DNA from: an uncultured Candidatus Saccharibacteria bacterium
Lineage (GTDB): Bacteria > Patescibacteriota > Minisyncoccia > Phycocordibacterales > UBA6899
Direction: 5' to 3'
Assembly (NCBI GenBank): GCA_964469335.1
Contig: CAYXYK010000002.1
Coordinates: 125,549 to 189,548, forward strand
DNA: 64,000 nucleotides
The notes beneath the pieces are model-generated. The model ran no database searches, was not told the origin of the DNA, and was given only the letters and a program-made list of their open reading frames with translations. This document shows positions 28,029-35,238 of the stretch, one piece after another. The translations under genes were made by a program, and so were the position numbers. Each line of letters begins with the position of its first letter. Position 1 is the stretch's first letter.

Positions 28029-29606
28029 TTATAGATCGTTACCGGTGTACGAGAGATTGAAACTTTTGTTGCAGAGTGGGAAGTCCGGCACCATCTCCCC
28101 TTCGACAACGTGCGGGAAAGCTTGCCAGTTGAGGAATGAAGGATCACGCACCTTCACACGAGATATCTTTCCATGTGTATCAGTCTTGACCACATAGACA
28201 ATGTCACCTCTCCAGCCTTCAACGATACCGATGCCGACTGATCCGTGCGTCAGTTCCTTGTTTGCTGATGCCACCACATGTGGGCCTGCTGGAATCTCTT
28301 CGGTTGCCTTTCTGATGAGCGAGATCGAGGCATAGACTTCATAGATCTTTACCCAGAGTCGGGCTGACACATCGCCTTCAGTTCGAGTTGCCACCGGAAA
28401 ATCGAGTTTTGGATATGCTGCGTAGGAAAAGTCTTTGCGAGCATCTTTTGCTACCCCAACCGCGCGAAGCGGTACTCCGACCACTCCATAGTCCTTTGCG
28501 ATCTCGGGTTTCAATCTTCCGGTATTTTCCACTCGGTTTGCGAGGGTAATGCTCTTTTCTGCGATTTTGATAACCTCGTTGAAATCTTTTTCGATTGTCT
28601 TGAGTTGCTCAGAGAGTTGCTTGATCTCTCCTTCGTTTATGTCATGGCTTACTCCACCGATGATGATGGTCTTTCGCATGAAGCGGCTTCCTGTAAGGCG
28701 CTCAGCAATTTGCATGACCTGCTCACGTAGACGGCCTCCGTTTGCTCCCCCGAACGCATACGCGGTATCGAGCATGATGAAGCCGATGTCATTGAGATGA
28801 TTTGCGATACGCTCGAGCTCGGCATAGATCACGCGAAGGTATTTCGCACGTTCAGGGACTTCAATCTGCTTCAGATCTTCTATTGCTTGTGCATAAGCGA
28901 GTGCGTGGCTCACAGTCGAGTCACCAGAGATATGCTCAGCGAGCTGAAGATGCTTCTCGGCTTCAAGATTCTCAAAAAGCTTCTCCACACCTTTGTGTAC
29001 GTAGCCGAGTTGTGCATCGAGTTGCTGTATCTCCTCTCCGAGCACACTGAATACAAAGTGCCCTGGCTCGATGATCCCCGCGTGGACCGGACCGACAGGG
29101 ATCTGATACATCCCCTCGCCTTTCACTTCGAAAAAGGGATATGAAAAATCATCGATGACTGGAGGTCGGACATTCCAGGAGGTGCTTTTGCGAAGCGGGT
29201 AGATATCTTTGGGCCAGTTCGCATGAATGACAGTGTTGCGTGCCCCGGGATGGCCTTCTGGGGTGAGCCCGAACATAGTCATGATCTCGTTCTCGTAGCC
29301 GGCGAACACGCGATGGCGCGAACCAAGTGAGAGGAATGAACCAGATGAAGAAACTGGGGTGGTAACAGTCAGAAACTTGTTCTGTCCGATAACGCCGAAG
29401 ACATAATTCACCGTGAAAGTGCTCCCCGAAACTTCTTCTCCATAAACGGTGAGGAGTGAGAGTCGGCCGTCGAGATATAATGCCCCGACGACTTCCTGAA
29501 TATGGTTTTGTTGAATAGTCGTGTGTGCATGGGCTCCGGACCACTTGATCGGGAATTCGCTCGGAATCTGTGTGAATAGAGTGGGTTCGTTCATATTAGT
29601 GAGCAT
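28029..29606 (-). CDS. fused NuoC/NuoD-like (HycE/HyfG-like) large subunit of a group-4 hydrogenase-like complex, lacking the NiFe-ligating cysteines
   Basis: N-terminal 30-kDa (NuoC-like) domain plus 49-kDa/[NiFe]-large-subunit-like domain (GPVHAGIIEPGHFVF...). HISGDSTVSH stands where the RxCGxCxxxH motif should be, and DPSFLNWQAF where the C-terminal DPCxxCxxH should be. 525 aa. Confidence 0.8.
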   Translation of the reverse strand: MLTNMNEPTLFTQIPSEFPIKWSGAHAHTTIQQNHIQEVVGALYLDGRLSLLTVYGEEVSGSTFTVNYVFGVIGQNKFLTVTTPVSSSGSFLSLGSRHRVFAGYENEIMTMFGLTPEGHPGARNTVIHANWPKDIYPLRKSTSWNVRPPVIDDFSYPFFEVKGEGMYQIPVGPVHAGIIEPGHFVFSVLGEEIQQLDAQLGYVHKGVEKLFENLEAEKHLQLAEHISGDSTVSHALAYAQAIEDLKQIEVPERAKYLRVIYAELERIANHLNDIGFIMLDTAYAFGGANGGRLREQVMQIAERLTGSRFMRKTIIIGGVSHDINEGEIKQLSEQLKTIEKDFNEVIKIAEKSITLANRVENTGRLKPEIAKDYGVVGVPLRAVGVAKDARKDFSYAAYPKLDFPVATRTEGDVSARLWVKIYEVYASISLIRKATEEIPAGPHVVASANKELTHGSVGIGIVEGWRGDIVYVVKTDTHGKISRVKVRDPSFLNWQAFPHVVEGEMVPDFPLCNKSFNLSYTGNDL

Positions 29607-31059
29607 TACCGTTTACAAGTAAAGATGCTTCCCCGATCAGTTTCGCGATCGATGCAGGAACATATAGCGATAGCACGATGAGAACCACCAGGATCACGAA
29701 AAGCGGGATGAGTGTGAGACTGTTATGCTCACCGATGGCGATCTCGCCATTCGGCTCTCCGTAGAGCATGAGCGCCGCGTGACGCAGGAATCCGACAAAG
29801 ACGAGGATGAGCGCAAGGAGAAGTGCGACGAGAAGGTATATGGATGTATTCGTCGCAGCAGAGAGGATCGCGAATTTGCTCGCGAAGATACCGAACGGGG
29901 GCATCCCGACGAGGATGAATATTCCCAAAAAGAACACTATGCTCGTTTTGGGTAACGTTCTGATCATTCCGCGCACTGAATCGATCTTTGTCGAGCTATA
30001 TTTCAAGAAGATATTCCCTGATGACATGAATAACATCGACTTAGTAAGTGCATGATAGATGATATGCAGGACTGCACCCATCGCTCCGATGCCTCCAACT
30101 CCAGTTCCGATTGCAATAAGACCCATGTTCTCGATACTTGAATACGCAAATAGGCGTTTGTAGTGTTTTTGTCTGAGTAGTGTGAAGGCGACGATTACTA
30201 CGGATAGCAGTCCGAAGCCGATCATCAAGTTTCCGGCAAAGTGGTCAGCAGAAACAGTGTCAACGATACCTTTGAAGCGTACAAGTGCCAAGAATGCGAC
30301 ATTCAACAATACACCCGAGAGCAGAGCCGAGATCGGCACGGGTGCCTTCGAGTGGGCATCAGGAAGCCACGTGTGCATCGGGGCCAGACCGACCTTAGTT
30401 CCGAATCCAACAAGGATGAAGATGAATGCGACATGTGCGGCGAGCGGAGACGCACCTCCTGCGATCATGCGCAGGTCGCTCCATGAAAGAAGTGATTCCC
30501 CGCCGGTTGCGCCGATTGAAGCGATAAGCAGGATCATTCCAAAGAAACCAAGAAGAAGCCCGACAGAATTGATGACGACATATTTCCATGCTGCCTCTAT
30601 CGATGATGTCTTGTTGTAGAAACTAATGAGAAATACCGTTGCAAGTGTGGTTGCCTCTATTGCGATCCACATGAGCACGGGGCTTGTTGTCGATGCTGCA
30701 AGGAACATCGCGAACAGAAATGCATTCAGAAGGATGTAGTACTCGCGCATCTTCTTGGGGGTGACATAGCCCTTCTTCTCCTCTTCCGAGAGGTAGCCCG
30801 ACGAGTAAAGCATCGCATTCGTTCCCACAAAAGCAATGACAGAAAGAATGATAGCCGAGAGCGGGTCTAGCTCGAACCATACCGAAGAAGCGACCATCAC
30901 TCCTGTGCTTGTGAGATATGCAGCAAAAAGTGAGAGTGCAAGGACTATCCCCATTGAAAGCATGCTGGCGAGCTCGATCCATTTGACTTGACGATCCTTG
31001 AGGCCGAAAGCGACTAGTGCTGACGCGAGCGGAAGAATGATGATGGTGAAAAGTAACAT
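29596..31059 (-). CDS. NuoM/NuoN/HyfF-like antiporter-type membrane subunit
   Basis: Polytopic membrane protein with Mrp/NuoLMN-type motifs (WLPDAHSKAPVPISALLSG). Likely start MLLFTIII with an AAGGAAG RBS. The ORF track extends upstream to 31170. Confidence 0.8.
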   Translation of the reverse strand: MLLFTIIILPLASALVAFGLKDRQVKWIELASMLSMGIVLALSLFAAYLTSTGVMVASSVWFELDPLSAIILSVIAFVGTNAMLYSSGYLSEEEKKGYVTPKKMREYYILLNAFLFAMFLAASTTSPVLMWIAIEATTLATVFLISFYNKTSSIEAAWKYVVINSVGLLLGFFGMILLIASIGATGGESLLSWSDLRMIAGGASPLAAHVAFIFILVGFGTKVGLAPMHTWLPDAHSKAPVPISALLSGVLLNVAFLALVRFKGIVDTVSADHFAGNLMIGFGLLSVVIVAFTLLRQKHYKRLFAYSSIENMGLIAIGTGVGGIGAMGAVLHIIYHALTKSMLFMSSGNIFLKYSSTKIDSVRGMIRTLPKTSIVFFLGIFILVGMPPFGIFASKFAILSAATNTSIYLLVALLLALILVFVGFLRHAALMLYGEPNGEIAIGEHNSLTLIPLFVILVVLIVLSLYVPASIAKLIGEASLLVNGNAH

Positions 31060-31063
31060 GGTA

Positions 31064-34689: not shown

Positions 34690-34695
34690 GATGAA

Positions 34696-35238
34696 TTATT
34701 TCGTAGCTACCTGCTTAGATGCTTCGTATTTCAGGATATCGTTGAGCGCCTTGATGACGTCACTCGGGCTCGGGGGGTCACCTGGGATCTCATAGTCGAC
34801 TGGAATGACGTCACTGAGTGAGTCGACGATCCCATAAGAGCCTCGGAATATACCTCCGTTAATCGCTCCGTCCCCTACGGCAACTACGATTTTCGGAGTC
34901 GCCATCGCATCATAGCTATGTTTCACTCCTTGGATCATGTTGCGGGATACGGGTCCGGTCACCATGAGCATGTCTGCGTGGCGGGGTGATGCAACGAAGT
35001 GCACGCCAAGACGCTCGATGTCATAGTATGCATTGGTAAGGGCAGTCAGTTCCTGCTCTTCAGCGTTCGAAGATCCTGCTGCTACTTCGCGGATGGCAAG
35101 TGAGCCATGAAAGAGCCTTCGAACATTCTCAGCTAGCTCGGCTTTTGTAGTGTCGATGGTCTTTCCCCCCTCGAATAAAACCTCCGTTTTAATGACGGTT
35201 CGGGGAGTCCTTAAGATCTTCAGCAGCATTTGCAGCAT
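34696..35238 (-). CDS. NuoB/HycG/HyfI-like small subunit lacking all four Fe-S (N2) cysteine ligands
   Basis: Alignable to NuoB: FVASPRHADMLMVTGPVSRNM, KIVVAVGDGAINGG, VIPVDYEIPGDPPSP. The CCxxE, GSCANGG and PGCPP cysteines read AAGSSNAEE, GDGAINGG and PGDPP. 180 aa. Confidence 0.8.
   Translation of the reverse strand: MLQMLLKILRTPRTVIKTEVLFEGGKTIDTTKAELAENVRRLFHGSLAIREVAAGSSNAEEQELTALTNAYYDIERLGVHFVASPRHADMLMVTGPVSRNMIQGVKHSYDAMATPKIVVAVGDGAINGGIFRGSYGIVDSLSDVIPVDYEIPGDPPSPSDVIKALNDILKYEASKQVATK

Follow-up and report, generated by a model that had tools for sequence, protein, structure and literature searches.

A hydrogenase-4-like operon without nickel-iron, iron-sulfur or quinone ligands, and its linkage to ATP synthase genes in a mostly patescibacterial clade

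What can a complex built on the plan of complex I and the membrane-bound hydrogenases do for a cell once every residue that would hold a redox cofactor has been replaced? This question is raised by a six-gene operon at positions 28029-35238, on the minus strand, of a 64,000-nucleotide stretch of DNA (the window) from an ultrasmall, uncultured Candidatus Saccharibacteria bacterium (assembly GCA_964469335.1, contig CAYXYK010000002.1, positions 125,549 to 189,548 of the forward strand). A first reading of this DNA, made from its letters only and referred to here as the sequence-only reading, described the operon as a Hyf-like, complex-I-related module in which every Ni-Fe and Fe-S ligand is replaced, and this description stands after residue alignments, although three of its residue assignments were mis-registered. 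We place the operon among the energy-converting hydrogenase-related (Ehr) complexes, in a clade where the Fe-S ligands of the small subunit have been lost as well, and where the operon often lies beside the genes of the F-type ATP synthase.

The six open reading frames (ORFs) are all intact, tightly packed and arranged head to tail, in the order small-HyfB-HyfC-HyfE-HyfF-large. They encode a NuoB/HycG/MbhJ-like small subunit of 180 aa (34696-35238; Pfam Oxidored_q6, 2.7e-22); a HyfB/HycC/NuoL-like antiporter-type subunit of 674 aa (32665-34689; Proton_antipo_M, 1e-51; NCBIfam hydrogenase-4 subunit B, 598 bits over its full length); a NuoH/HycD/HyfC-like subunit of 312 aa (31730-32668; NADHdh, 1.6e-36; HycD, 7e-39); a HyfE-like, NuoK-related membrane subunit of 218 aa (31064-31720; NCBIfam NF008556, hydrogenase 4 membrane subunit, 4.8e-14, full length); a HyfF/MbhH/NuoN-like antiporter-type subunit of 487 aa when read from the ATG at 31059 (29596-31059; Proton_antipo_M, 2.8e-55; NCBIfam hydrogenase-4 subunit F, 419 bits); and a fused NuoC+NuoD/HycE-like large subunit of 525 aa (28029-29606; Complex1_30kDa, 9e-11, and Complex1_49kDa, 2.8e-51; HycE, 8e-68). 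These Pfam and NCBIfam profile searches agree with the six families named from the sequence, and two details of spacing also hold: the ATGA overlap at 32665-32668 between the HyfB-like and HyfC-like genes follows from the ORF coordinates, and the 4-nt gap between the HyfE-like stop codon and the HyfF-like ATG can be read directly. The alignment of the HyfB-like protein to HycC (1e-59) covers residues 43-603, with the C-terminal W-x-C-G-Y stretch among them. A sequence search of solved structures gave no meaningful match for the HyfE-like subunit; its orthologue in L009, one of the related loci surveyed below, has a weak match to PF00420 (NuoK family). Every NCBIfam score falls below its equivalog cutoff (for the HyfB-like protein, 598 bits against a cutoff of 667), which indicates that the six proteins are relatives, and not orthologues, of the named enzymes.

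Ligand positions were taken from residue alignments to MbhJ, HycG, NDUFS7, HycE, Nqo4 and MbhL, together with 53 Ehr small subunits that carry four Cys ligands. In the small subunit, which matches HycG at 1.5e-19, the four positions of the [4Fe-4S] Cys ligands are occupied by Ser57, Glu60, Gly124 and Asp154. The sequence-only reading had put Ser, Ser, Asp and Asp at these N2-cluster positions; it was right that none is Cys, and the actual residues differ from those it gave. Asp123 is the neighbor of a ligand position and is found also in many Cys-containing relatives. The small subunit contains no Cys at all, and the six proteins together contain five in about 2400 residues. For the large subunit, the proposed change of the RxCGxCxxxH motif to HISGDSTVSH, with Ser227 and Ser230 at the Cys positions, agrees with the alignments to HycE and MbhL. 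The second motif, DPCxxC, had been assigned to DPSFLNW, a stretch that aligns instead to a conserved R-x-P-S-F-x-N block farther upstream; alignment to the D-P-C-Y-S-C of HycE locates the motif at the extreme C-terminus, in FNLSYTGNDL, where the two Cys are replaced by Ser519 and Gly522. Alignment to chain 2FUG_4 demonstrated that the quinone ligands Tyr87 and His38 of Nqo4 (T. thermophilus numbering) correspond to Gly228 and Ile179. With all Fe-S and NiFe positions occupied by residues other than Cys, and with the quinone ligands gone, the alignments predict that no redox cofactor is possible in this complex. The conclusion drawn earlier, that it can carry out neither hydrogenase nor quinone-reductase chemistry, is borne out by the same residues: there are no NiFe or Fe-S ligands for the first, and Gly and Ile stand in for Tyr87 and His38 in the second. 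Likewise, the ferredoxin-type subunit, HyfA/HyfD, hyp and hycI genes reported as missing nearby are missing from the whole 64 kb, and Pfam scans of the called genes found no hyp, formate dehydrogenase, NuoEF, NuoA/J/I/G, ferredoxin or quinone genes in the window.

Set beside characterized systems, five of the six subunits have their best-scoring relatives, solved or curated, in E. coli hydrogenase-4 and formate hydrogenlyase (HyfA-J; HycB-G, PDB 7Z0S). The window's operon shares with them the hydrogenase-type beta1-beta2 loop of the large subunit, P-V-H-A-G-I-I-E-P-G-H-F, with its proton-transfer Glu (Glu180), but lacks the NiFe site, the proximal Fe-S cluster, HyfA, HyfH, the HycB/F ferredoxins and HyfD, and has no formate dehydrogenase partner and no hyp or hycI genes in the window. 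Both Cys motifs of the large subunit and the four cluster Cys of the small subunit, by which a group 4 [NiFe]-hydrogenase is recognized, are absent. Complex I and the Pyrococcus membrane-bound hydrogenase (MBH) and its relative MBS (PDB 4HEA, 6CFW, 6U8Y) have a homologous NuoB, C, D, H, L/M/N and K-like core; in contrast to these, the window's operon has no N2-type cluster Cys, no Tyr87/His38 pair, neither the full complex I core set (NuoA/J/K/I, usually with E/F/G) nor any NuoA/J/I/E/F/G gene, and none of the extra subunits of the MBH Na+ module. Public databases label genes of this kind "Ni,Fe-hydrogenase III" or "NADH-quinone oxidoreductase subunit", and these labels call for caution in annotation, in that proteins bearing them can be neither enzyme.

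The sites that have lost their cofactors are strongly conserved. Among 119 large-subunit homologues, the former NiFe motifs are near-invariant, as E-[RKH]-[IV]-S-G-D-[ST]-S-x-x-H and F-P-L-x-N-K-S-F-N-L-S-Y-[ST]-G-x-D-L; Ser227 is invariant, position 230 is Ser or Thr, and the stretch containing Ser519 and Gly522 is invariant across the family. In 121 sequences, the small-subunit motifs AAGS[ST]NAEEQEL, GD[GD]AI[DN]GG and IPGDPPSP are almost without variation, and no Cys is present in 94 of 120 small-subunit homologues. Together these residues outline a remodelled polar pocket, conserved in the large subunit as H175, E180, S227, D229, S/T230, H234, K514, S519 and D524 and faced by near-invariant residues of the small subunit (E60/E61/E63, D123 and D154). 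As read from the alignments, the former electron path is predicted to be lined with conserved carboxylate, hydroxyl and histidine residues. Of the six subunits, the small one, now without a cofactor, is the most conserved within the clade (mean pairwise identity 0.63), followed by the HyfC-like (0.58), large (0.56), HyfB-like (0.53), HyfF-like (0.52) and HyfE-like (0.40) subunits; for the membrane subunits the range is thus 0.40-0.58. An AlphaFold model of the small subunit has a pLDDT confidence score of 78.7, and the best Foldseek matches of this predicted fold are NuoB/PSST, MbhJ and HycG, with a TM-score of 0.79 to MbhJ (target-normalised). Conservation of this order, highest in the small subunit and near-complete at the former redox sites, means that the peripheral arm is not a relic; for the same reasons, a vestigial or merely structural arm is unlikely, and the structural role offered as one option by the sequence-only reading does not fare well.

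The membrane arm retains the residues expected of an ion path. In the HyfB-like subunit, the charged relay E149, K231, H238, K262, K360 and E415 is invariant in 13 of 13 loci of the Fe-S-less clade, and by transmembrane helix (TM) this relay comprises a Glu in TM5, a Lys in each of TM7, TM8 and TM11, and a Glu in TM12. In the HyfF-like subunit, E136, K223, H230, D235 and K341 (in TM11) are invariant across the clade, with Lys or Glu in TM12. The relays of both subunits align to functional residues of MbhH, MbsH and HycC, and the channel residues of the HyfC-like subunit align to those of HycD. Within the Fe-S-less clade, these HyfC-like residues (R132/E133 and E141, the channel Arg/Glu) do not vary, and in Ehr complexes with four small-subunit Cys (four-Cys Ehr) they hardly do; the same holds for a 24-residue loop between TM5 and TM6, P-x-D-N-P-x-T-H-L-E-L-T-M-I-H-E-A-M-I-L-E-Y-S-G; in the HyfE-like subunit, K66 and E160 are conserved. 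A role in ion translocation without redox chemistry fits this intact set of residues.

How widespread is this loss? Large-subunit homologues with 49-98% identity form at least 120 clusters, and those with a name belong to Patescibacteria lineages (Paceibacterota, Azambacteria, Magasanikbacteria, Howlettbacteria, Moranbacteria); an exact-match search of an assembly index with the window's large subunit found no entry, a single-protein search of genome contigs returned two close relatives, and the same operon architecture is retained in many lineages from 45% to 98% identity. We mapped the six subunits and read the ligand positions in 89 related loci, which carry L numbers here. The large-subunit signature S-G-D-[ST]...H / S-Y-x-G-x-D occurs in all of the loci surveyed except L033, a true hydrogenase, which shows the loss of NiFe ligands to be a general Ehr trait. 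This confirms the Ehr-type architecture suggested from the sequence, the signature being common to more than 60 Ehr loci and the large subunit nesting among Ehr in a neighbor-joining tree; in line with this, the operon has a large subunit without NiFe Cys, together with NuoL-, NuoH-, HyfE- and NuoN-like subunits and a small subunit. What it does not have is the [4Fe-4S] site that the small subunits of sampled Ehr typically retain. Outside the window's clade, 53 of 53 small subunits have all four Cys, and in the survey the loss of these ligands is confined to this clade (L001-L018, 14 of them with a readable small subunit), whose members have none or one: position 57 is Ser, Thr or Asp, position 60 is Glu or a lone Cys, position 124 is Gly, Asp or Glu, and position 154 is Asp or Asn. 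The clade's members share at least 45% identity and the gene order of the window, with the small subunit first, a position that sets them apart from other Ehr. A neighbor-joining tree without bootstrap groups 13 of 13 Fe-S-less loci as one monophyletic branch inside four-Cys Ehr.

Ferredoxin-type subunits follow the same division. Of the 32 four-Cys loci whose architecture is "small subunit last", 11, or about a third of this class, have a 2x[4Fe-4S] motif, often fused to the small subunit; none of 15 Fe-S-less operons has a ferredoxin-type ORF in or near it, two relaxed-motif ferredoxin-like matches near such operons being short out-of-frame ORFs inside real genes. The fusion, in which the 2x[4Fe-4S] ferredoxin and the small subunit form one ORF of HyfH-HyfI type, was observed in L032, L034, L043, L056, L062, L072 and other four-Cys loci.

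Two simpler views of this distribution were rejected. The clade is not strictly one of the Candidate Phyla Radiation (CPR): L005 (ENA ERZ25074342), a contig of 3.08 Mb with the Fe-S-less Ehr operon at 4369-11575, encodes a ribosomal protein S2 that is 85% identical to that of a Lentisphaerota metagenome-assembled genome. The clade has therefore spread beyond CPR. The tree puts L005 among loci that are otherwise from CPR, its operon has no ATP synthase close by, and lateral transfer of a CPR-type Ehr operon is the likely route. Nor is Fe-S loss unique to this clade, since a search of 1.84 billion cluster representatives identified a second lineage of Cys-less small subunits (L090, L091; proteins P0444, P0482, P0473, P0492, P0509, P0515 and P0485) that are longer (234-298 aa) and high-GC-looking, with D-[EDV]-D-[SD] at the cluster positions, a remnant N-terminal ferredoxin-like domain with about three Cys, and the gene order large, small, NuoL-like. 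Fe-S ligands have thus been lost at least twice.

Much of this ground has been covered before. The Ehr class was reportedly defined by Marreiros et al. in 2013, and the literature describes its members as relatives of the group 4 hydrogenases that are without NiFe ligands and are suspected of translocating ions. The EhrA-D/L/S complex of Geobacter sulfurreducens (GSU0739-45) has the same subunit list as the window's operon, and Ehr in general share with it the large-subunit signature without NiFe Cys and the NuoH-type loop, whereas the window's clade has neither the four small-subunit Cys nor the ferredoxin found among other Ehr. Jaffe et al. 2020 (BMC Biol 18:69) described the CPR sequences as a monophyletic Ehr clade without metal-binding Cys that "likely cannot interact with H2". 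Both properties, the CPR grouping and a large subunit without metal-binding Cys, are those of the window's operon, which on its sequence almost certainly belongs to that clade. The core of the finding is therefore already published, given an established Ehr class, an identical subunit list in Geobacter and the CPR clade of 2020, and the novelty that the sequence-only reading implied does not hold. The main text of Jaffe et al. 2020 treats the large subunit only, and the terms "ATP synthase" and "antiporter" occur nowhere in it. Relative to that text, four points appear new: the small subunit has lost its Fe-S ligands, there is no ferredoxin subunit, the remodelled sites are conserved, and the operon is linked to ATP synthase genes. 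In the literature searched, from which the paper defining Ehr was absent, no source connects the Ehr of CPR with ATP synthase or mentions that the small-subunit cluster has been lost; in sum, the Ehr family and its Cys-less large subunit are known, and complete cofactor loss and the ATP synthase link appear to be undescribed.

The sequence-only reading placed an F-type ATP synthase operon about 1 kb away, and the a-subunit gene does start 1.1 kb downstream, on the same strand. ORF calls, tblastn and, for beta, Pfam define the operon (20339-26935, minus strand) as the genes for a (26192-26935), c (25867-26091), b (25390-25842), delta (24988-25386), alpha (23408-24970), gamma (22475-23404), an acidic 127-aa ORF (22074-22457), beta (20660-22138) and epsilon (20339-20572). 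Among loci with at least 6 kb of flank, atp genes are found in the flanks (about 5 kb) of 8 of 11 Fe-S-less loci and of none of 25 four-Cys Ehr loci (Fisher p = 5e-6, a value that overstates the support, because the loci are phylogenetically non-independent). The atp operon is located downstream of Ehr in the window, L001, L002, L003 and L018, and upstream in L008, L009 and L015; the linked loci lie on deep branches of the Fe-S-less clade, and no other Ehr in the comparison shows such linkage. Proximity to the ATP synthase is a conserved, clade-specific linkage, and it is probably the most informative clue to function.

We also examined the synthase itself. Na+ coupling was considered and rejected: the Na+ site of the Ilyobacter tartaricus c subunit, made up of Gln32, Ser66, Thr67 and Tyr70, has Leu, Ala, Leu and Ile at the equivalent positions in the window, and a c subunit without this Na+-binding signature makes the synthase look H+-coupled. 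The epsilon subunit is only 77 aa long, corresponding to the N-terminal beta-sandwich, compared with 137 aa for its orthologue in L003, and its C-terminal helical domain seems, from the sequence, to be missing. In other bacteria this domain inhibits ATP hydrolysis, and a short epsilon would fit a synthase that readily runs in reverse. The acidic 127-aa ORF between atpG and atpD has no Pfam match and occurs at the same position in L001, L002 and L018; it may represent an accessory atp-operon gene of this lineage that has gone unrecognised. A 2024 perspective notes that nearly all Patescibacteria have an F-type ATP synthase and no respiratory chain, and that antiporters or pH homeostasis may be driven by the enzyme running in reverse.

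From sequence, conservation and gene neighborhood we infer ion translocation itself and, with it, the ions moved, their direction and the role of the cap. Our leading reading, offered tentatively and judged to fall a little short of an even chance, is that the product of the operon moves ions independently of redox chemistry, on an ion circuit that it has in common with the ATP synthase, with the cap acting as a proton- or cation-binding or gating module. The complex would consist of a hydrogenase-4/complex-I-like membrane arm (two antiporter-like subunits, a NuoH-like and a HyfE/NuoK-like subunit) capped by NuoB-like and NuoC/D-like subunits that bind no Ni, Fe-S cluster or quinone. Secondary ion translocation would proceed through the conserved Glu/Lys relay, with the complex either exchanging cations for protons as an antiporter or converting one of the two gradients, proton and cation, into the other, as in Mrp. 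In the cap, the path that once led from Fe-S cluster to NiFe site would have been rebuilt as a set of carboxylates, hydroxyls and histidines beside the invariant NuoH-type loop, a set whose most plausible role is to bind protons or cations, or to conduct them, and to gate the channel in the membrane. The ion circuit would be that of the neighboring H+-type F1Fo ATP synthase; in a cell without a respiratory chain, this synthase may work in reverse and so energise the membrane, or it may depend on a gradient that reaches it through the complex. Mrp (Mnh/Sha) would be the closest functional analogy for this mechanism, and is not a family to which the operon belongs: Mrp is redox-free, and its MrpA and MrpD are homologous to the HyfB-like and HyfF-like subunits (matches to PDB 7QRU and 6Z16) and have the same Glu/Lys relay, but an Mrp is made up of an MrpB/C/E/F/G set with no NuoB-, NuoC/D- or NuoH-like subunits, whereas the window's operon has that arm and lacks MrpB/E/F/G.

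Several observations weigh against an ion translocator of this kind. The cap amounts to about 700 residues and is the best-conserved part of the complex, and Mrp has none; a plain antiporter needs no cap, so that its conservation hints at a function beyond transport. MrpB/E/F/G, whose absence was noted above, are thought to form the Na+ path in Mrp and MBH. Both Ehr classes have Asn or Pro in place of Lys in TM8 of the HyfF-like subunit. Ehr that still have an Fe-S cluster conserve the large-subunit pocket and the NuoH-like loop just as well, so that the pocket may be there for some chemistry that all Ehr share. The linkage to ATP synthase is absent from 3 of the 11 Fe-S-less loci (L005 from Lentisphaerota, L007 and L017), and in the window the two operons are separated by a convergent 213-aa ORF (27291-27932, plus strand) and by a G+C-rich hairpin with an 11-bp stem and a T-run (27952-27978), found in a terminator scan and terminator-like for that ORF, which points to separate transcripts for the Ehr and atp operons in this genome. 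This ORF encodes six Cys, has no Pfam match, and is conserved in place in L002 (47% identity) and weakly in L018 and L001. Finally, no Ehr complex has been the subject of an experiment, and the literature calls the function of Ehr unknown.

We weighed four alternatives, taken here in descending order of our confidence in them. The first builds on the conserved pocket between the two cap subunits and proposes that it is a new, non-redox catalytic or ligand site coupled to ion translocation, comparable to CO2 hydration by the Cup/DAB systems of cyanobacterial NDH-1, in either of two variants, a chemically driven pump or a gradient-driven enzyme. We regard this as unlikely, but it draws on much of the evidence above: the pocket and the small-subunit residues facing it are near-invariant, the cap is the most conserved part, and no variation is seen in the NuoH-type coupling loop, the element that passes on active-site events in complex I and MBH, while the presence of the same pocket in all sampled Ehr suggests a shared chemistry. 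That chemistry is the difficulty. In four-Cys Ehr the pocket adjoins an Fe-S cluster, which implies electron delivery, and this is impossible in the Fe-S-less clade, so that a single shared chemistry is hard to formulate. There is, moreover, no candidate substrate, no recognisable catalytic motif, and no conserved enzyme or transporter gene beside the operon except the ATP synthase.

In the second alternative, no ions are transported, and the complex serves the ATP synthase or the membrane as a partner in a structural, regulatory or sensory capacity, for instance as a scaffold or by sensing pH or proton-motive force. The clade-specific linkage to the atp operon would suit such a partner, no energy source for pumping can be identified, and the conserved cap could be an interaction surface. 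A scaffold, however, needs no invariant buried Glu/Lys relay and no NuoH-type channel residues, both of which are expected under selection for ion passage, and the operon persists without atp linkage in the three loci listed above. We therefore rate a partner that transports no ions as rather improbable, below a new pocket site.

Could the complex still be a redox enzyme, with a metal centre held by Asp, Glu, Ser or His, or with cofactor-bearing partners encoded elsewhere? The replacement residues are potential metal ligands and are conserved, some clade members have the single Cys at position 60, and our inspection covered 64 kb of the genome. Against this, two of the ligand positions, 124 and 522, are occupied by Gly, none of the 15 operons has a ferredoxin-type ORF, and no [4Fe-4S] cluster with zero or one Cys ligand is known. 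CPR bacteria are also generally without quinones and electron-transport chains (PMC7507113), and the reading of the CPR clade given in the text of Jaffe et al. 2020 is one of no interaction with H2. Taken together, residual redox activity is very improbable. The last alternative, a decaying, non-functional hydrogenase remnant, would account for the loss of all catalytic ligands and is effectively refuted already by the conservation data: six intact and tightly packed ORFs, an architecture kept from 45% to 98% identity, near-invariant motifs and a confident fold prediction.

Divergent from the small-subunit gene is a 122-aa ORF (35351-35719, plus strand) that matches only the S1-S4 (voltage-sensor) part of Ion_trans (1.1e-6) and contains an R-L-L-R-L-L-R-I-G-R-L-L stretch; it was considered as a conserved partner and rejected, as it recurs only in the closest relative, L001. 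By Pfam, the other called genes of the window include genes for DNA repair, tRNA synthetases, the cell wall and two-component systems, and an Rfam scan identified four tRNAs only. Two of these genes carry additional domains: in a leucyl-tRNA synthetase of 960 aa (9285-12167, minus strand), the editing domain is followed by an inserted NUDIX domain (residues 385-504, 3.9e-9), and the exonuclease VII large subunit (38096-39706, minus strand) has an N-terminal HRDC domain (3.8e-18) before the usual OB fold and catalytic domain.

If ions are translocated, this operon would encode a natural "uncoupled" relative of complex I, MBH and Mrp, one that could help to tell ion translocation apart from the redox mechanism, a matter debated for complex I. 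A bolder form of the ion-translocator reading, possible but on balance doubtful, is that a complex-I/hydrogenase-type machine was turned into a cofactor-free ion device in one radiation, where it is the missing partner of the CPR ATP synthase, its former electron wire having become a carboxylate-lined proton or cation site. Were this true, the complex would let a reverse-running synthase build a usable cation gradient, or would feed an external or host-derived gradient into ATP synthesis, and would explain in concrete terms why an F-type ATP synthase is kept by bacteria that have no respiratory chain. The linkage to ATP synthase genes bears directly on that stated question of Patescibacteria biology, and the operon presents a six-gene target for heterologous expression and assays. 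Ehr are widespread, and this clade, in which the peripheral arm and its coupling loop are the best-conserved parts although every cofactor site is gone, offers the cleanest case for what a complex-I-type architecture does without redox chemistry.

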